Part shown: in pieces, positions 362 to 9,745 of the stretch
Numbering within the stretch: position 1 is the stretch's first letter
Layout of the letters: each line of letters begins with the position of its first letter
Origin: a virus
Taxonomy: Duplodnaviria; Heunggongvirae; Uroviricota; Caudoviricetes
Strand: one strand, 5' to 3'
Virus record (IMG/VR): IMGVR_UViG_2778261139_000008
Length of the DNA: 37,938 nt
Translations under genes and position numbers: made by a program
Notes under the pieces: model-generated
What the model was told of the DNA's origin: nothing
The model's input: the letters and a program-made list of their open reading frames with translations, nothing else
The model's database searches: none

Positions 362-1099
362 TCATTCACTCTCTTTCAAACCAGTTTTAACTGTTTGTGG
401 TTTTGGGTAAGGCTGGACTTTGAATAGCTTTGTGTTGAGGCGTTTTCTGGCCCTCTTGTTCAGAAACCGGATGTAACGAAACTGTCGGAACTTATGCACA
501 CTGGCTCTGTCGATATTAGCCCTCAGATGTTCACCTCGTTGTCCGCCTCGTTTAATGGCACTCCTGCAAATCTCGTGATACCACTCGCCATCAAGTTCAT
601 AGAATGTTGATTCATGGCTGCCTACATAATCAAAATTGCTTGCCTGATACACGACACCAAGACAGCCACAACGCTCATCTGCAAACGACTGAACCCACTG
701 TACCTGCGGATAAAGCTGCCTGATTAGCTTGAGCGCGTAACTGATTGCCCTTGATTCGGAGTTTCTCGGCATACAGTCATGCATCCATAGCCGGTTAAGC
801 TCCATATATTCTCGGTTCTGCGTACCCGTTACGACGCGTGCACCACTGTTTGGGTTAAGGGCGTAACCCCATTGCATTACGCCAACAAGTTCCCGTTCTG
901 AAAATATACCCAGATGAAGGTAGGAATTATTTACGAAACGGTGGCTGTAATGTTTATTGACGATAACCAGTCTGGCCAGCCAGCAACTTATTGTCTCAAC
1001 CCGCAACTCACGGGAGCCATAACCAACGATATTGTCGTTATAGCGAATAAGTTCAGGCGTGCTGATGATACGGGATGTGACTTGCTTTCTGTTCCCCAC
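362..1099 (-). CDS. mom: Mom-like DNA modification protein
   Basis: 245-aa ORF immediately downstream of, and overlapping, a Com-like zinc-finger gene at the phage right end, as in Mu com-mom. The annotated start is GTG, so the true start is uncertain. Confidence 0.7.
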
Positions 1100-1253
1100 G
1101 ACAGGATTTCCTTGTGTATGTGGGGTGCTCTGTGGCGCTCGGAGATGTGATTTGATTGAGGGTTTTACAGCGCGGACATTTTACTTCCAGATAACTGAAA
1201 CTGGCCCGTGCCAGTAGCTTATTGCAGTGTCGGCACCGTATGTTTCGATACAT
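1053..1253 (-). CDS. com: Com-like zinc-finger translational activator of mom
   Basis: [10 protein letters not shown]...VKCPRCK C4 zinc-finger closely resembles Mu Com. ATG at 1253 with AGGAGG upstream; the ORF track extends to a TTG at 1298. The 3' end overlaps mom by 47 nt. Confidence 0.8.
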
Positions 1254-1298
1254 GGCCGCATAACCTCCTGCTTTGTTGTTGATGCCTTTCTCATGCAA

Positions 1299-2386: not shown

Positions 2387-4435
2387 TTATGCCGCAGGGG
2401 TATTAACCTCAAGGACAACGCTCTCAAAAGACACGCCATAAGTTGCCCCTTTGGTGACATCTGTCAGTGTCAGCGTATCTTTGGCAGGGGAAAGTGCATC
2501 TTTCACCATCTGGAATGCCTGGCCCGGAGTGCCATCCAGCACAGGCGTTACCTGGGCACTTCCCGCCGTAAACTTCAGGACAAGTGTATGCCACTGGTTA
2601 TTGTAGGCTCCAAATGATCCCAGTTTCGTATTCCCCCCTGTTTTATGGTGCATCAGATTTAACTGGCCGCCTGTTGTCTGGAGATAATACGCCATCAGGA
2701 ACGGTGTGCCTGTACCACTCATGGTTACACCTTCCGGGACCGTATCGGTGTGGAGGTAAATACCCAGAGCAAACTGGCCTTCTTTTACTTCACCTGACAG
2801 ACGGAATTTACAGGTCAACTGACCACCATGCTTCAGAAGTTCACCGGCTGCATCAGTTCCATGGGTAAGCGTCCAGGTTTTTCCGCTTTGTTTGGATACG
2901 GTCAACGCTTTACCTTCGTCCGTCAGCTGGATTGTACCATCTGTAATTTTCCAGCCCTGAGCCGGGGCTTCTCCTGCTGATGCTTTAAGTGAAAGCAGCG
3001 TACGGAGTGACGGGGATGTCGGATGGGGGGACTCACTGCCTCCTGGCTGACTACCTGTCGGCGCTTCCGGTTTCCCACCCGGCGCGGGCTGAGGCAGGGC
3101 TTCACCATCAGGGGCCACACCGGCAATAAATGCAGAGGTCAGACCTGCATATTTAAGAATTGCTGATGCAAAACGATCTGAGACCAGAAAACGGCGCGCC
3201 CAGGAGCTAAAATGGGTTGCCCTGGATGCTGTTGTCCAGTTGCCATCTCCCCGTGATTCCGCACCATAATACCCGGCAGAAGCGATATCCGGGTCGTGCT
3301 CCGGCAGGTTGGTCGCGGTTTTATTACCGAACTCATCGTGCATCAGTGGAACAAAGTGAATGTTCTCGGAAGCCCGGTTTTTATATCCGCTATAAATGGT
3401 TTCATATGCCGCCGGGTTCTTCTCTTTCCAGTCATAGGTTGTGTCACCACATAACCACGGCACACTGTCTGATGAACCACCAATACACTGACCGGAGAAA
3501 GCACCAAGATCCGCACGGAATTTTTTCACCATCGCAGTAAACTGGGCACCATGCTGGGCCGGGGTCGCTTTAAGGTCTCCTTCCCCCTGAATCCATACGA
3601 CAGATAACAGCACATTCTTTGGATTCGCCTCAAGTGCCGCTTTAGTTCGACTGACAAGATCCTGATACAGTGGGGTATCCACTCCCCAGCGTAGTGACGC
3701 CTCGGCTGCACCACTTGCCGGATCGAATGAGCCAACTGCGCCGGTTGTAAAAGCAGAGCCGCCACGGGCACAGGGAACCAGTAAAATCCCGGCATCAGCA
3801 GGAATCACCGGTAATACTTTTTTCGCAATATGAAGTCCCTGCCCCACACAACCATACTGCCCTTTTTTCAGGTCTGCTTTTGGATGGTTCAGCAGACTCA
3901 TATTCTGAACATCATGAAGGCAGTGATCTGCTGGAATGATTTCATTGTATTTGCAGGGAATACCTCCGGGGGTTTGTGTATTCCTGCGTGCCAGCTGCAT
4001 AATACGTGGATCAGGACGATCATAAGAATCCGGAAGGGGCAACCCTTCACCATAAGATGAAGCATTGGACTGGCCGGCTATAACAATCACGTAATACCAG
4101 GAAGGGGAGCTGGAAGCAGTTTCATTTCCTGACGGACGGGTATGTGTTTCAGCATTATCCCAGTCTGACGGTTCAGCAGTACCGGCAACATCAGCACTTA
4201 ACGGAATGACCGCACCAATACCCGCTCCGGTAATTTCCACACTCGGATCACCGGATACTGGCCTTACCCACAGGCAATCCCGTGTATTAAAACTGATGAG
4301 ACAGTCAGCAAATGTCATTCCTCCTTTTGTTTCGGCCGGAGGAAAGGGAGCCTCAAGAAATGCCGCTGTACCACCGGAAACTTTAACAGTAAAGTTTCCG
4401 GGCATTGATGATAGTTGAACCCATTTGGACGTCAT
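2387..4435 (-). CDS. SGNH/SASA-family carbohydrate O-acetylesterase-like protein with Pro/Gly-rich linker and C-terminal beta-rich (lectin-like) domain; NanS-p-like or tailspike-type deacetylase
   Basis: 682 aa, ATG start. Motifs VIVIAGQSNASSYGEG and VVWIQGEGD match the nucleophile and acid motifs of sialate O-acetylesterase-type SGNH hydrolases. Low-complexity P/G/S linker near residue 440. Not part of the canonical Mu gene set. Confidence 0.6.
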   Translation of the reverse strand: MTSKWVQLSSMPGNFTVKVSGGTAAFLEAPFPPAETKGGMTFADCLISFNTRDCLWVRPVSGDPSVEITGAGIGAVIPLSADVAGTAEPSDWDNAETHTRPSGNETASSSPSWYYVIVIAGQSNASSYGEGLPLPDSYDRPDPRIMQLARRNTQTPGGIPCKYNEIIPADHCLHDVQNMSLLNHPKADLKKGQYGCVGQGLHIAKKVLPVIPADAGILLVPCARGGSAFTTGAVGSFDPASGAAEASLRWGVDTPLYQDLVSRTKAALEANPKNVLLSVVWIQGEGDLKATPAQHGAQFTAMVKKFRADLGAFSGQCIGGSSDSVPWLCGDTTYDWKEKNPAAYETIYSGYKNRASENIHFVPLMHDEFGNKTATNLPEHDPDIASAGYYGAESRGDGNWTTASRATHFSSWARRFLVSDRFASAILKYAGLTSAFIAGVAPDGEALPQPAPGGKPEAPTGSQPGGSESPHPTSPSLRTLLSLKASAGEAPAQGWKITDGTIQLTDEGKALTVSKQSGKTWTLTHGTDAAGELLKHGGQLTCKFRLSGEVKEGQFALGIYLHTDTVPEGVTMSGTGTPFLMAYYLQTTGGQLNLMHHKTGGNTKLGSFGAYNNQWHTLVLKFTAGSAQVTPVLDGTPGQAFQMVKDALSPAKDTLTLTDVTKGATYGVSFESVVLEVNTPAA

Positions 4436-4534
4436 AATAATCAGCCTGTTCCTGAATAAACTGAATTATCATATCCACAGACCGATAAACGCCATTTTGC
4501 GTTAATTCAGTAAAGGCCCAACAAAGAGAGCGTC

Positions 4535-5095
4535 TTATTTTTCCGAAACGCTCGCAGGATAATAACGATAAAGGGTTGAAAGACCGATATCAAAAATAAG
4601 TGCCACCTGTCTTCGACTGACACCCCCGGCCAGTAAACGCCCGACCTGCTCGTATTGTTCCTGCGTGAGACGGCGGGGTCTGCCGCCGGTTCGTCCCCTT
4701 TCACGGGCAGCTGCAAGACCAGCCCGTGTCCGTTCGACAATTAATTCACGCTCCATTTCTGCCAGCGCACCCATTATGTGAAAAAAGAAACGCCCCATGG
4801 GGGTTGACGTATCAATGTTGTCAGTAAGACTACGAAAATTTATCCCCTGTTGCTGTAATTCATCTGTCAGCGCAACAAGGTGGCGCATACTGCGCCCCAG
4901 CCTGTCCAGTTTCCAGACCATCAGTGTGTCACCGGGTTTTAGTTTCTTCAGTGCCCGCTTCAGTCCCGGCCGCTGTGTCGTTTTACCACTCATTTTGTCT
5001 TCAAAAATCTGCTCACATCCTGCACATTCCAGCGCATTTCTTTGTAAACCGGTGTTCTGGTCATTTGTTGATACGCGTATATAGCCAATCAGCAT
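4535..5095 (-). CDS. gin: Gin-type serine DNA invertase
   Basis: N-terminus MLIGYIRVSTNDQNTGLQRNALECAGCEQIFEDK... is near-identical in pattern to Mu Gin/Hin/Cin resolvase-invertases (catalytic Ser in RVST). C-terminal HTH. Adjacent to a gix site. Confidence 0.95.
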   Translation of the reverse strand: MLIGYIRVSTNDQNTGLQRNALECAGCEQIFEDKMSGKTTQRPGLKRALKKLKPGDTLMVWKLDRLGRSMRHLVALTDELQQQGINFRSLTDNIDTSTPMGRFFFHIMGALAEMERELIVERTRAGLAAARERGRTGGRPRRLTQEQYEQVGRLLAGGVSRRQVALIFDIGLSTLYRYYPASVSEK

Positions 5096-5150
5096 GTATT
5101 TACCTTCCTTAAAAAGAGGTGAAAATGCCTTTTAAAACAGATATACGGTA

Positions 5151-5176
5151 TCCCTGAAAACCTCGGTTTACGGGAA
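5151..5176. other. gix recombination site (gin-proximal)
   Basis: TCCCTGAAAACC-TC-GGTTTACGGGAA: 26-bp imperfect palindrome matching the hix/gix half-site pattern TTCYTGNAAACC, 55 bp upstream of the gin start. Confidence 0.75.
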
Positions 5177-5545
5177 ACGGTAAATAAGGCTGCTGATGCC
5201 CTGCCATCGGGTGGAACCGCCGTGGCAGCAAACAGACTCGCCACCCCAAGAAATATTAATGGCGTTCCTTTTGACGGAACGCAGGATATCAACATCACGT
5301 CAGGAATGACGCAGTCAACCGCAGATGGCCGGTATGTACAGAATGTTCAGCTTGGAGCACAGAGCTATCATTCACCCGGAGGCAATGAAATATCATGGAA
5401 TTACAGCGCACCTTCCGGTTGTATGCTTTCCGGTATTAACGTGCAGGAAACCGGCTCCCGGTCTGCGGACAATATCGGTGGGGTCTATTATCGCCCGGTT
5501 CAGATTTATATTAATAATGCCTGGAGAACGGTAAGTTCAGTGTAA
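5165..5545 (+). other. Silent alternative tail-fibre C-terminal cassette (Sv'), promoterless in the current orientation
   Basis: Plus-strand frame reads ...GLRETVNKAADALPSGGTAVAANRLATPRNINGVPFDGTQDINITSGMTQS... from the gix site, paralleling S residues ~177-230 and then diverging to a different C-terminus ending at 5545. Confidence 0.7.
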
Positions 5546-5555
5546 ACCACAGAAA

Positions 5556-5574
5556 AGGGTGCTGAATGCACCCT
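5556..5574. terminator. Short hairpin between convergent Sv' cassette and U gene; possible terminator
   Basis: 7-bp stem (AGGGTGC/GCACCCT) with 5-nt loop lying between the Sv' stop (5545) and the U stop (5580). Confidence 0.35.
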
Positions 5575-5579
5575 CTGAA

Positions 5580-6101
5580 TTATTCCGGTTTTTCCGGCCA
5601 GGGAATCGCCTGGTAATGCCCCTCACTGGCAATATCATTAAAGTGCATTTCTTTAAGCTGTCGGATATACGCCATCCAGCGCGTCAGCTGTAATTTATTT
5701 TCATCGCTAATCATGTCCAGTTTTAATTCTGTTTTCCAGTCATCCACGGTTTCGTTGGCTTCCTGGAGCAGCGATGAGCGACGCTTTTCAGCAACCGTCT
5801 TCCAGTTTACCGGCACCTTTGATATCAGGCCATCAGAAAACTGCCAGTTACCGTCAATATTCACACCTTCCGGCAGTTCGTCCACTTCAACAACAGTAAA
5901 ACCTGCCGGATATAAAGCAGAGACATCTTCAGCAACAGAGCAGATAATACCCGTTACAGGCGAAATACAGAGTTTGTATTTCTTTGTGAAAAGCGGGATA
6001 GATTCATAAAAATCCCTTCCGTCCTCACTCTGGAAATACTGAACATCCTCACCATAGGGTTTGTGTTCCGGGTAATATCGTTTTACGTTAATAAGCTCCA
6101 T
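5580..6101 (-). CDS. Tail fibre assembly protein (Mu U-like / Tfa family)
   Basis: ~173-aa protein directly downstream of the tail-fibre gene. ATG at 6101 with AAGGTG RBS; the ORF track start at 6212 overlaps S and is less likely. AT-rich like other tfa genes. Confidence 0.75.
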   Translation of the reverse strand: MELINVKRYYPEHKPYGEDVQYFQSEDGRDFYESIPLFTKKYKLCISPVTGIICSVAEDVSALYPAGFTVVEVDELPEGVNIDGNWQFSDGLISKVPVNWKTVAEKRRSSLLQEANETVDDWKTELKLDMISDENKLQLTRWMAYIRQLKEMHFNDIASEGHYQAIPWPEKPE

Positions 6102-6180
6102 TATTTCACCTTGTTTTTGTTGAAAAGACAAAATCATCATATATTTATTCAGATAATCTGTTTTTTGAACTACTGCACTT

Positions 6181-7068
6181 TTATGCGCTGGAAGCTGTTT
6201 TCCACGAACCATCTATCAGAAACTGAACAGGTCGATAATATGCGGTTACCGTTGCATTACCATCACCAGCGACATCAAGCCCTGTAAGTACGCATCCGTC
6301 AGGAACTTCAAAAATATTATATTGCATTCCAATCGTTGACCTTGAACCTCTTCGAATGCTTTGAACATAACGTGAGTCAGCCACAGACTGCGTCATCCCC
6401 GATGTAATATTTATATCCTGCGTTCCGTCAAATGGGACACCATTAATATTTCTTGGAGTGGCGAGTTTATTCGCTGCAACAGCCGTTCCGTTCGATGGCA
6501 GGGCATTCGCCGCCTTATTTACCGTTTCCCGTAAACCGACGTTATCGATAAAAGCGCCTTTATCCGGAATGTCTGCGCCGTTCTGCTCCCTGCGCAGGTA
6601 ACGGTTATCACCTTCGCTTTTGCTGTAAACATCCAGATTATTACGGGCGGTTCCCGCATTCTCCAGGTCGGCAAGGTTCTGATCCTTCGCCAGAGCATTA
6701 ACGTCACCGGGACCAAGACTGTTTTTTGTGGCAAGCGCCCCAAGACCAAGATAACCACGGGCAAGACGCTGGGCTTCCGCACCGGCATCAGCAATTTCTT
6801 TCAGGTTGTTTTTCCGGGAAAAGGCATTCGCAGCGATAATGGCTTTAATGGACAGCGTAAGCTGGTTTAACTGCGCCTTATCCGGCTGAATACTGGCTTC
6901 AGCCAGAATATTCAGCAGTTCGGCCTGGAGAATATTCAGCCAGTCCTGACCAATCCAGCTGATACCTTTTTGTCCGTCACCTTCGGTAAACCAGGTGGTG
7001 GTATTACTCTGCGCCGGTGCCAGCGCAGGCATATTCGCCACGCCGGAATTATTATCAACATGAAACAT
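6181..7068 (-). CDS. Tail fibre protein (Mu S-like); constant N-terminal part plus invertible variable C-terminal tip
   Basis: 295-aa ORF after the baseplate genes; a gix site lies within codons ~177-187; the C-terminal ~110 aa is homologous but divergent from the silent Sv' cassette. Confidence 0.8.
   Translation of the reverse strand: MFHVDNNSGVANMPALAPAQSNTTTWFTEGDGQKGISWIGQDWLNILQAELLNILAEASIQPDKAQLNQLTLSIKAIIAANAFSRKNNLKEIADAGAEAQRLARGYLGLGALATKNSLGPGDVNALAKDQNLADLENAGTARNNLDVYSKSEGDNRYLRREQNGADIPDKGAFIDNVGLRETVNKAANALPSNGTAVAANKLATPRNINGVPFDGTQDINITSGMTQSVADSRYVQSIRRGSRSTIGMQYNIFEVPDGCVLTGLDVAGDGNATVTAYYRPVQFLIDGSWKTASSA
6526..6551. other. gix recombination site (inside the S gene, constant/variable junction)
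   Basis: TTCCCGTAAACC-GA-CGTTATCGATAA; its first half-site is identical to the inverted half-site of the 5151-5176 site. Confidence 0.7.
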
Positions 7069-7628
7069 TAAATAGTCTCCTCTTCATGGCTGTTTGCATA
7101 CACGTAAATAAACGTCTGCCATGCAGGCTTATAACGGTTCAGAATACATTCCAGCGCACCGCCTTCATAAATACGCAGCGGCGTGAGAATATCATCCAGC
7201 ACATTCATATTCCGGTAGCCGGTTTCACTGTTAATCGTGACAATACTGACCCACTGTGAATCCGGTGATGGCTGAATATCTATTTCATAACCAAACTCTG
7301 CCGCAAACCGGATATAAAATTCACGGTTAAGAGAGGGTTTCATCCGGTATTTATTCCCGGCATAACGCTGACGCTCCTGAATGGTTGCGCCGGTCATATC
7401 ACATTCCGGTAACCCCAGATAACGCTCCCAGTCTTCCAGCAGCAGACGGGATGAATCAGGAAAACGTTCTGCCAGCATCTGGTTACCGGTCCAGGAAACA
7501 CGCTCCGTGGAATGACTGAGGCCCAGGCACAAAGCCGCAAGAACGGATGACGGCCGCTTATCCCATGCCAGCCCGTCAGGCAGCAACTGCAACAGGGCAC
7601 GCTGATGCGGGGTCAGGGTTACAGCCAT
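7068..7628 (-). CDS. Baseplate/tail protein (Mu gp48-like)
   Basis: 186-aa ORF between the baseplate J-like gene and the tail fibre gene, start/stop coupled to neighbours; assigned by position and size. Confidence 0.7.
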   Translation of the reverse strand: MAVTLTPHQRALLQLLPDGLAWDKRPSSVLAALCLGLSHSTERVSWTGNQMLAERFPDSSRLLLEDWERYLGLPECDMTGATIQERQRYAGNKYRMKPSLNREFYIRFAAEFGYEIDIQPSPDSQWVSIVTINSETGYRNMNVLDDILTPLRIYEGGALECILNRYKPAWQTFIYVYANSHEEETI

Positions 7629-8704
7629 GTGATTTCCCCCACGGTCAGCAACTCTGTATCTCCGGCCATCACGGACTTCAGCGGGCTGCGAACTTCAAAA
7701 TCCTCCAGTCCTTTCACCCCTGCAACAGCCCGCCAGAATGATGAAGGCAATACAAGTCCACCCGGCCGCGATTCGTTATAAAGCAGGTCCGTTAATGCCT
7801 GTTTTACGGCAGCCTGATTTTCCGGCGTTTTGGGTACAATCCTGATCTCAAACGCCACCGGCTTATTGGTCAGCTTAAACACGCTGATTGTCGGCCCAAG
7901 TGGCTGACCAACGGGCTGGCCCGTCGCCGGATCATCATGACTGCGGATATAATCCGCCACCCGCTTCACATCACCTTCTCCGGGGAAAATGTCAGGGTTA
8001 TTATCCTGAACAAAAGTCACACCAACACTACCCGCCTCAGGCCATTCAGGCTTACACCATGCCCGCGTCACGCCCGGTACTTCCCGTGCCCAGCGTTCAA
8101 AATCATACTGTGTTCCCCCTGATGGCGGGTTCTGTACCCGGAATACCAGCCTGGACAGCAACTCCGGCACCGTTTCCACATCCGCACCACCGGTGAGTCC
8201 CGTGCCGGTGACCGTGGCTGTCTGGTTGATGCCCGCCTGTGGCGTGATAAAGGACAGGCGGGTTCCGGTCGGGGTATTTCCAGCGCGCCCCGCACTTTCC
8301 GCCTCCACATTAACATTCAGTGTTCCGGCTTTTCCGGTCGCAGAGCCGGTGATGCGGTACACAACACCATCGCTTCGCTGAAGGAGTACGCCTTCCGTGA
8401 TCCCTGCATCCGTGGTCAGCATCAGTTGTACCGGTCCGTCAGCGCGGGAAGCCGGTTTACGGATGACACCCCAGAATGCGCAGTGTTTCAGGAGTTCGGC
8501 TTCATCAGCTTCTGTCGGAATTATCTGCCGGGAGATCCAGGCCAGATGTTCATGCTCCTGTGCTGACAGACCCGCCAGTGCATACGCAATGGCATTCAGG
8601 GTGGTTTCATTCACGCCCGGCTGCGAACCGGGCAGGCGCTGGCTGATATCCTGTTGTGTCTGTGTGATCAGTTGCGCCAGTGGTAAGGGCTGATAAGGCA
8701 TCAT
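7619..8704 (-). CDS. Baseplate J-like protein (Mu gp47-like)
   Basis: 361 aa, position between gp46-like and gp48-like genes; sequence character typical of baseplate J family. Confidence 0.8.
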   Translation of the reverse strand: MMPYQPLPLAQLITQTQQDISQRLPGSQPGVNETTLNAIAYALAGLSAQEHEHLAWISRQIIPTEADEAELLKHCAFWGVIRKPASRADGPVQLMLTTDAGITEGVLLQRSDGVVYRITGSATGKAGTLNVNVEAESAGRAGNTPTGTRLSFITPQAGINQTATVTGTGLTGGADVETVPELLSRLVFRVQNPPSGGTQYDFERWAREVPGVTRAWCKPEWPEAGSVGVTFVQDNNPDIFPGEGDVKRVADYIRSHDDPATGQPVGQPLGPTISVFKLTNKPVAFEIRIVPKTPENQAAVKQALTDLLYNESRPGGLVLPSSFWRAVAGVKGLEDFEVRSPLKSVMAGDTELLTVGEITWL

Positions 8705-9138
8705 TCCCCCTTCATATCAGCATAAAAAATCATCGGATGTCTGCTTCCGTCCGGCAGGGTGATTTTCACGGAAAGCGAAAGGCGAGCATGCCCCACACGC
8801 ATGGCATGACATACCACGGATGTGGCAGCACCGCTTTTATGCAGCCACGCCAGCGCTTCATCAGCATAGGCCTGTGCACGGCTGACCACGGAGGACAGCG
8901 TCTTTTCACGGCTTAACAGCCAGAGACGGGAGCCAACGGGGCGCTCCCGGAAACTGTCTCCCCACCATCCCCGACGGTCACGGGTGCCGTCAGGGATTTC
9001 ATCGGAATCCAGCGCCCGCCTGTCCGTAAACAGTGAAATAATGACCGCAGTCAGCAGGCTGTTATCCGTCAGAAGATCTGCGCCGTTCAGTTGCAGGGAA
9101 CCGCAACCCTGATCCCAGACGACAGCAATATCAGCCAT
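8701..9138 (-). CDS. Baseplate protein (Mu gp46-like)
   Basis: ATG at 9138 overlaps the upstream stop (ATGGCTGA); the longer ORF-track start at 9351 lies inside the previous gene and is less likely. Confidence 0.65.
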   Translation of the reverse strand: MADIAVVWDQGCGSLQLNGADLLTDNSLLTAVIISLFTDRRALDSDEIPDGTRDRRGWWGDSFRERPVGSRLWLLSREKTLSSVVSRAQAYADEALAWLHKSGAATSVVCHAMRVGHARLSLSVKITLPDGSRHPMIFYADMKGE

Positions 9139-9745
9139 TCTCTGGTCCTCCCGTTTTGCTGCCTTCACCGTTATCGTGATGCACATGACCTGAATAGGTG
9201 ATCCCGGCAATAACCGCTTCGGACATCGTGAACGTCCCCTGTGATCTTCCGGTGCCGTCAATGGACACATTGCCTTTGACATGCAGGTTCTTATCCACTG
9301 TGACATTACCGGTAAAGTGAGCCTCCGGTGTATCCACCTGAACACCTTCATCGGCGTAAATCTCCAGCGTCTTACAGGTCACAATGATCCGGCCGTTCTT
9401 TGTCAGACGTATACGGTGCCCCTCATGGTGATACACGCCGGTATCTCCGGCGGTAAGTCCGGTCGGGCGACTGCGGCGGTCTTCCACCACAAGCACCACG
9501 GCCTGATCCCGTTGTCCGCCAGCACAGGCCAGAAAAACTTCCGCACCAGGCAGGGGGACGCTGATTTGCCCGTACTGCTGGGGGCGTTCAACGTCATCAA
9601 AGGTTTCACCATCCATACCGGTTATTTGCACATTCTGGATTTTCAGCGTGTCCGTTGTGCCGGTCAGTACACCACGCCCGAACAGCAGACGAACACCCCG
9701 CATTACGGGGGCCAGAAGGCGGCTGATGACTTCGTCATTCATCAT
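9131..9745 (-). CDS. Baseplate assembly/spike protein (gpV-like, Mu gp45-like)
   Basis: 204-aa ORF after the P-like gene; ATGATG start; position-based assignment. Confidence 0.7.
   Translation of the reverse strand: MMNDEVISRLLAPVMRGVRLLFGRGVLTGTTDTLKIQNVQITGMDGETFDDVERPQQYGQISVPLPGAEVFLACAGGQRDQAVVLVVEDRRSRPTGLTAGDTGVYHHEGHRIRLTKNGRIIVTCKTLEIYADEGVQVDTPEAHFTGNVTVDKNLHVKGNVSIDGTGRSQGTFTMSEAVIAGITYSGHVHHDNGEGSKTGGPENG

Follow-up and report, generated by a model that had tools for sequence, protein, structure and literature searches.

A Gin-type invertible tail-fibre switch with a single assembly chaperone gene in a Mu-like prophage of Shiga-toxigenic Escherichia coli

In the accepted picture of the invertible tail-fibre switches of phages Mu and P1, which are textbook examples of programmed host-range variation, each alternative fibre tip travels with its own chaperone. 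The stretch of DNA analysed here (IMG/VR record IMGVR_UViG_2778261139_000008, 37,938 nucleotides (nt), hereafter the window) is a Mu-like prophage of Shiga-toxigenic E. coli of the Sp18 type, and its switch has two tips and only one tail-fibre assembly chaperone gene, tfa. The question is how a single tfa can serve two tips, when inversion turns it against the fibre gene S. We infer, mainly from comparison with related loci and with a probability of roughly 0.55, that both tips share one chaperone, whose gene is transcribed independently. The switch itself is real and active. It is a variation on a known system, and the question that it poses is that of chaperone sharing and expression.

The switch is framed by two inverted crossover sites of 26 base pairs (bp) that resemble the gix sites of Mu. 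The left site, TCCCTGAAAACCTCGGTTTACGGGAA, lies at 5151-5176, is identical to Mu gixL in 20 of 26 positions and has its central TC at 5163-5164. The right site, TTCCCGTAAACCGACGTTATCGATAA, lies at 6526-6551 in inverted orientation to the left one; it is identical to Mu gix in 22 of 26 positions, and its central GA at 6538-6539 matches the central dinucleotide of the left site. When the window was searched for an 18-mer core pattern, as many as 3 mismatches being allowed, these two were the sole matches in the 37.9 kilobases (kb), compared with 0.02 matches expected. With exactly two sites in the window, multiple inversion of the Min or shufflon kind, which involves more than two sites, does not apply. 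The two 26-mers are the outer ends of a 185-nt inverted repeat with arms at 5156-5340 and 6362-6546 that are 81% complementary, and the left arm codes for the conserved start of both tips (GLRETVNKA...NITSGMTQS).

The invertible segment has a length of 1,377 bp (5163-6539) and contains, in order, the silent tip Sv', a 34-nt gap with a hairpin, tfa, a 79-nt spacer and the variable tip Sv. As the segment is wholly accounted for by these parts, there is no room for a second chaperone gene, U'. The initial annotation had described two inverted gix-like sites around about 1.4 kb that hold the variable S tip, one U/tfa gene and an oppositely oriented Sv'; its site coordinates hold exactly and all three components are present as described.

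The sites lie within the fibre gene, so that its 3' end is swapped in frame. In the present orientation, S (6181-7068, minus strand; PHROG 1833, tail fibre) encodes 295 amino acids (aa) and consists of the constant part Sc (6540-7068), outside the segment, and the B1-type variable tip Sv (6181-6538). When exactly the bounds 5163-6539 were inverted in silico, Sc joined Sv' in frame to give a 303-aa S-Sv' protein. The enzyme that carries out this inversion is encoded next to the segment at 4535-5095 on the minus strand. It is a 186-aa serine DNA invertase of the Gin family (Pfam Resolvase, 1.4e-51; HTH_7, 1.7e-14), a member of the Din family (Gin/Cin/Pin/Hin) of serine recombinases with a C-terminal helix-turn-helix. 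Its residues 1-182 match Mu Gin (PDB 3uj3) with an E-value of 2.3e-91, the identity to Mu Gin is 75%, and the first 220 nt of the gene, the part in which switches of this family have a Fis-dependent recombinational enhancer, are similar to Mu gin. The locus is thus a Gin-type invertible tail-fibre switch that has all the tested defining features except one: the arrangement in which each tip has its own tightly coupled tfa (Sv-U and Sv'-U') was not found.

Both orientations exist in nature and are joined at the crossover site. In orientation A, which is that of the window, S is composed of Sc and Sv with the B1 tip and is followed by tfa in the same reading direction. In orientation B, S is composed of Sc and Sv' with the A tip, and tfa, now on the other strand, runs towards it. 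The window orientation is matched at 100% by five complete genomes (over 4400-7700, the identity is 100% to E. coli 2012C-4502 and four further complete genomes), and the same locus is 97-99% identical to Sp18-type prophages of O157:H7. The product of the in-silico inversion is matched at 100.0% over 3,301 nt by 10 complete E. coli genomes. In a natural inverted genome, the 303-aa fibre is annotated together with an opposite-strand tfa that has the same protein accession as that of the window. The statement that tfa would be antisense to the S-Sv' fusion after inversion is therefore borne out by both the in-silico product and the annotated natural loci. The two arms are identical only at 5163-5190, which confines the natural crossover to a 28-nt interval starting at the predicted central dinucleotide.

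Orientation A was counted in 26 complete genomes and orientation B, with tfa antisense to S, in 182 (at least 80% coverage), and the IMG/VR loci show both orientations as well. The switch is active in nature, and a switch locked in one orientation, which had also been considered, is contradicted by these counts. Part of the excess of B may come from repeated sampling of O157 clones. Two strains were found with two copies of the locus in opposite orientations: strain 8479 (NZ_CP074994 and NZ_CP074995, the second copy on a 167-kb record listed as a plasmid) and O157:H7 Z869 (NZ_CP062782). Nine IMG/VR contigs (L045-L050 and L055-L057) break off in the 185-nt repeat or at its edge (fibre residues 169-221), and these breaks suggest short-read assemblies that were split on cultures with both orientations.

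The sole chaperone gene, tfa (5580-6101, minus strand), encodes a 173-aa homologue of Mu U. It belongs to Pfam Caudo_TAP (PF02413; 66.6 bits against a cut-off of 22.1, 3e-18) and to PHROG 136 (E 1e-57), and its residues 17-147 match Mu U (PDB 5yvq_B, E 2.3e-15). The start at 6101 is backed by RefSeq WP_000420351.1 and by the start M[EQ]L[IK]N[VI], which is conserved across alleles. When the tfa profile of the family was run against all 510 stop-to-stop frames of the window at E<=10, it matched 5583-6212 only; no second tfa was found, and the lack of U' noted in the initial annotation is upheld. A 98-aa open reading frame (ORF) antisense to tfa (5713-6009) was tried as a hidden gene and rejected, since it has 6-8 stops in other tfa alleles. 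The single tfa is also a property of the family, as one copy was found in every one of the approximately 35 Sp18-family loci examined (L002-L008 and about 30 from IMG/VR, 70-100% identity).

Tfa is not tied to the neighbouring tip. One tfa allele is paired with the B1 tip in the window and with the B2 tip in L004 and L027, and the N-terminal half of Tfa is conserved across alleles. This half is the fibre-binding domain according to North et al. 2019, as that work is summarised in PMC9608196. The N-domains of Mu U and U' are 73% identical to each other. Among phage records the nearest homologue of our Tfa is that of Rac-SA53, with 53% identity.

Both tips are functional receptor-binding ends and are homologous to the Mu S tip. 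The fibre has the N-terminal baseplate-attachment part of Mu S (residues 1-198 match Mu S 1-191, E 1.5e-44) and a homologous C-terminal tip (residues 230-295 match Mu S 436-504 in PDB 5yvq_A, E 8e-5). Since only the two ends of Mu S are matched, the fibre is a Mu S without the shaft of about 240 aa. The A and B1 tips are 39% identical in their variable part, close to the approximately 37% between Mu S and S', and share the C-terminal motif YYRPVQ..I..W...SS. Across the Sp18 family, the A-type is the conserved tip and the tfa-adjacent tip is the exchanged one, with type B1 in the window, the Mu-S-like B2 in L004-L006 and B3 in L008 and L034. In the window the A-type tip is the silent one: Sv' (5165-5545, plus strand) is promoterless, extends for 126 codons past the crossover, ends in ...YYRPVQIYINNAWRTVSSV and is in frame with Sc after inversion. 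It is joined to Sc in L003 and in the 182 complete genomes mentioned above. All 13 of its distinct alleles are intact, and the ratio of nonsynonymous to synonymous substitution rates (dN/dS) is 0.03-0.19 in the variable part, where dS is saturated, a pattern which indicates that the silent tip is under strong purifying selection.

A group of prophages has lost the ability to switch and is frozen with tfa antisense to the fibre gene. In this locked lineage, the S-tip is followed by tfa on the opposite strand and then by nanS-p, an esterase gene that in the window lies downstream of the invertase. The B tip (Sv), one gix site and the invertase gene except for its last 40 nt or so are deleted. 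The lineage was sampled from seven IMG/VR contigs (L028-L031, L033, L040 and L043) and at least seven complete genomes, and its loci L099 and L181-L183 are from E. coli S1-CAM-01-A, M3, JE86-ST05 and CI5. A single junction, 95.6-100% identical, is common to all members. Five tfa alleles were found in the lineage, all intact at 173 aa, and their dN/dS is 0.10-0.23. Apart from the deletion the prophages are intact, and they occupy four insertion sites (bcsA, flgL, flgK and the xanthine dehydrogenase gene upstream of xdhB), and one genome holds two locked copies (L028 and L029). Intact tfa in intact prophages at four sites means that the antisense layout is viable and that tfa is retained without its neighbouring tip. 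The lineage was also seen to carry two fused tips of 303 aa and 293 aa, from which it follows that tips and tfa alleles have been swapped by recombination within the frozen layout.

Another feature that sets this locus apart is the distance between tip and chaperone gene. The stop of S and the start of tfa are separated by a spacer of 79 nt with 75% AT (6102-6180, minus strand), in which an independent tfa promoter may be sited. Genuine single-tfa switches have an AT-rich gap of 50-120 nt between the stop of the tip and the start of tfa: it measures 51 nt (B3), 79 nt (B1) or about 110-120 nt (B2) in the Sp18 family, 69 nt in the Citrobacter braakii type, and 95 and 72 nt in two P2-like families with three tips each. 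In two-tfa switches (Mu, Fels-2, SJ46 and about 18 IMG/VR loci), 43 of the 47 gaps fall between -28 and +20 nt. Two loci with a gap of -1, L132 and L160, were dropped from the single-tfa class because a second chaperone-like ORF of about 92 aa stands behind their silent tip.

At the other end of tfa, a GC-rich hairpin (5554-5576), detected in a terminator scan, lies between the converging stops of Sv' and tfa and is terminator-like on both strands. Its folding energies are -15.4 and -17.8 kcal/mol on the two strands, with z-scores of -2.3 and -3.1, and it is kept in the locked variant L029. A two-strand hairpin is what a convergent gene pair would need if both genes were transcribed.

Some other elements of the spacers were recorded. 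The dyad TTAT-N4-6-ATAA occurs in 5 copies in the window compared with 0.83 expected, at 954-966, 1038-1050, 1655-1667, 5506-5517 and, within the tfa spacer, 6145-6156. It was tried as a site of the Mu C type and dropped, since all copies lie in AT-rich DNA between 950 and 6160, in the right 6 kb of the prophage, and none is at the position of the mom promoter; the spacing of the Mu C dyad also differs from that of the dyads in the window. The dyad might be an activator site or a mere feature of AT-rich DNA. The B2-type spacer (L004, L005, L027 and L029) contains a perfect palindrome with an 8-bp stem, CTGAAATA-TGCG-TTATTTCAG, about 120 nt upstream of tfa. It also contains an in-frame, hydrophobic 17-codon extension of tfa (MAIVLFLFLSLIYMVMF), which is absent from the RefSeq annotation.

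The single-chaperone layout is not confined to the Sp18 family and was found in at least four unrelated lineages, the others being the C. braakii type and the two P2-like families. A scan of species-representative genomes with S yielded 11 loci, chiefly informative for C. braakii. In C. braakii ATCC 51113 (L009), whose Sc is 73% identical to ours, the sole tfa stands directly behind an A-like tip, and the expressed tip has none. The region at 6819-9223 of L009 (the arrangement is also seen in L066) has three gix-like sites, at about 6819-6852, 8780-8856 and 9190-9223, with a short extra cassette between the second and third sites, and its 229-aa tfa is opposite in strand to the expressed fibre. 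The P2-like families, IMG/VR contigs with P2-like tail modules, are represented by L123-L126, L168 and L178 and by L155 and L166; both are invertible and have three tips and a single tfa. The 157-aa tfa of the L123 type occurs in both orientations among the contigs, and its 95-nt spacer in L123 contains the inverted repeat TGTGTGA-TTAC-TCACACA. The 72-nt spacer is that of L155.

We therefore come back to the question of expression. The Gin-family invertase recombines the inverted gix-like sites inside S and flips the 1,377-bp segment as a host-range switch. In the mechanism that we propose, the single Tfa would aid the folding of whichever tip is expressed. The tfa gene would be its own transcription unit, and hence be made in both orientations, with a start in or near the AT-rich 79-nt spacer, which moves with tfa on inversion. 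Orientation A would in addition give a joint transcript of S and tfa; in orientation B, the terminator-like two-strand hairpin separates the converging Sv' and tfa. Independent transcription of U was among the options of the initial annotation, and it now has the best comparative support, from the locked antisense-tfa lineage and the long spacer, but no promoter above chance was found for it.

Several points weigh against this mechanism, and the promoter is one of them. A scan for the sigma-70 consensus over 4400-7200 gave 6 sites compared with 4.3 expected from shuffled sequence, with none in the spacer. In the locked locus, 2 sites were found compared with 2.9 expected, one of them (TGGACA-17-CATATT) in what is left of the invertase gene, about 130 nt ahead of tfa. 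When seven spacers were scored, only -10-like hexamers with weak -35 elements were seen, and no promoter above chance. We take these scans as evidence neither for nor against independent transcription of tfa. Besides, tfa transcription that runs head-on into the late S transcript would come at a cost, and the chaperone action of this Tfa on either tip is a prediction from homology. The locked lineage also has to be read with care, as recombination is frequent among these prophages (tfa alleles next to a 100%-identical junction may differ by 4%) and the low dN/dS of its tfa may partly reflect selection in switchable relatives.

The main rival answer, which we consider less likely but still live, is that the A-type tip folds without a chaperone, and that Tfa serves only the adjacent B-type tip and is silent in orientation B. 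Such an arrangement would agree with tfa being antisense whenever Sv' is expressed, with the lack of a convincing independent tfa promoter in the scans, and with tips that are short, having only about 66-75 variable residues and no shaft of about 240 aa as in Mu S. The 790-bp segment of the carotovoricin Er switch, which is said to lack tfa, would be a parallel. However, the locked lineage has no B tip and still keeps tfa intact, with dN/dS of 0.10-0.23, at four insertion sites. Likewise, the tfa of C. braakii stands behind an A-like tip, the tfa alleles show no covariation with the type of B tip, and the long spacer before tfa in single-tfa switches would not be needed for co-transcription alone. 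Cross-complementation by Tfa is known from lambda Tfa and T4 gp38. A chaperone might be supplied in trans, in orientation B, by the tfa of co-resident prophages; homologues of Tfa are common among E. coli phages (221 phage records), and enterohaemorrhagic E. coli hosts are rich in lambdoid prophages (PMC2669165). We judge this very unlikely, because another prophage would have to be co-induced in every host, the locked variant is found in commensal and mouse strains, and an intact antisense tfa of the phage's own under purifying selection would be left unexplained.

The layout does resemble a Mu G segment from which U' has been deleted, and the initial annotation had accordingly raised the possibility that the switch is partly degenerate, in which case orientation B would give fibre-defective particles. 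This is highly improbable. Both orientations occur naturally as exact inversion products, Sv' is intact in 13 alleles with dN/dS of 0.03-0.19, and B is the commoner orientation (182 of about 208 complete genomes). The same architecture recurs in unrelated phage families, and locked-B prophages that are otherwise intact occupy four chromosomal sites and are present twice in one genome, a distribution that implies that transposition or infection has gone on. As the most conserved and most often expressed tip is precisely the one with tfa antisense, we regard partial degeneracy as ruled out for practical purposes. Finally, copies of the element may flip during lytic replication, so that each cell holds both orientations and tfa messenger RNA comes from the A copies. 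The intact invertase gene and the pairs of opposite orientation within single genomes would allow this, yet we find it scarcely credible, as the locked lineage persists with neither an invertase nor an A orientation. Inversion of the Mu G segment is also slow relative to the lytic cycle.

Returning to a Tfa that is made independently and shared by the tips, we can ask whether it describes more than one family. We tentatively suggest that single-chaperone invertible cassettes could be a distinct and widespread design, with an autonomous tfa that starts in a 50-120-nt spacer, a shared two-way terminator, and one promiscuous chaperone for two or three tips whatever the orientation. The Mu/P1 design, in contrast, has one translationally coupled chaperone per tip.

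When compared with the Mu G segment, the window has the same gene order, an invertase 75% identical to Gin, and gix sites with 20-22 of 26 matches that occupy the equivalent position in S (GL(Q/R)ETVN). The homology to Mu S covers the whole of Sc and also the tip, and Tfa is homologous to U. As the initial annotation had pointed out, Mu carries two tfa genes (S-U / U'-S'), while the window has one. The Mu segment is 3 kb long and that of the window 1.4 kb, Mu Sv has a shaft of about 240 aa that our fibre lacks, the spacer before tfa is 2 nt in Mu and 79 nt in the window, the inverted repeat is 34 bp in Mu and 185 nt in the window, and nanS-p lies between the invertase and com-mom in the window but not in Mu. 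The switches of the Cin/Pin family, namely P1 C, e14 P, Fels-2 and SJ46 (of which Fels-2 and SJ46 were examined directly), also have a serine invertase that flips the 3' end of a fibre gene. Unlike the window, they have two convergent tfa genes, and each is tightly coupled to a tip of its own, with gaps of -17 to +6 nt. The Min system of plasmid p15B shares the Din-family invertase and the alternative fibre 3' ends and has six crossover sites. The window differs in having exactly two, and its three-site relatives are the C. braakii locus L009 and the P2-like L123 and L155. Carotovoricin Er (Ein, of Pectobacterium) is similar in that inversion of a small region exchanges nothing more than short tips at the fibre C-terminus, but it is a tailocin of the P2/R-pyocin type. 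Its 790-bp segment is said to be without tfa. The presence of the carotovoricin invertase differs between strains (PMC13195805), which is comparable to our locked lineage.

The element belongs to the family of Sp18, the Mu-like prophage of the Sakai strain of E. coli O157:H7. Its genes, when read on the minus strand, follow the Mu order of gp47, gp48, S, segment, invertase and com-mom. The baseplate J gene (7619-8704, minus strand) lies upstream of gp48 in the Mu-like order, and the gene for the Mu gp48 / YmfQ-like baseplate wedge protein (7068-7628, minus strand; Pfam Phage_Mu_Gp48, 2e-22) is directly upstream of S, as in Mu. Downstream of the invertase, 2387-4435 on the minus strand encodes a 682-aa 9-O-acetyl-sialic-acid esterase of the NanS-p type (PDB 3pt5, E 3e-110; NanS-p 6yp6, E 1e-41; Pfam SASA and DUF6645). 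Tfa as a chaperone for this 682-aa neighbour was rejected, as the neighbour is an esterase and not a fibre. A nanS-p cargo is typical of Shiga toxin (Stx) phages, and here it is found in a Mu-like phage, between the invertase and com-mom, with small genes for DUF1378 (2150-2329) and DUF826 (1869-2114) beside it. The right end (362-1298, minus strand) has, as in Mu, a com-like zinc-finger ORF (within 1053-1298) and a mom-like gene (362-1099), and their homologues at related loci are annotated as 'Com family' and 'protein mom'. Annotations also place this Mu-like phage, as an insertion, in the genomes of Stx2c- and Stx1a-converting phages (LC727881, our L001, and LC727895), with the segment in orientation B.

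The invertible region of Sp18 has already been published (Asadulghani et al.); the available portions of that paper do not discuss the single tfa, its orientation, the tip types or locked derivatives. A mention of Sp18 from 2026 deals with the loss of the prophage and not with expression. In the literature searched, we found no discussion of a single-tfa invertible segment, of the predominance of the antisense orientation, of the locked lineage or of a spacer rule, and no mention of recurrent single-tfa, multi-tip cassettes in P2-like phages.

The rule of one chaperone per tip is thus broken by a switch that is natural, active and widespread, and whose chaperone gene faces the wrong way in the commonest state. 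If one independently made Tfa does serve several tips, the specificity of the chaperone would be looser than the Mu model implies, and phages and tailocins would be easier to retarget, many tips sharing one chaperone; such cassettes could also be annotated by a rule based on how long the spacer ahead of tfa is. If, on the other hand, the conserved tip can do without a chaperone, we would have in it a minimal receptor-binding tip of the Mu type that folds by itself.

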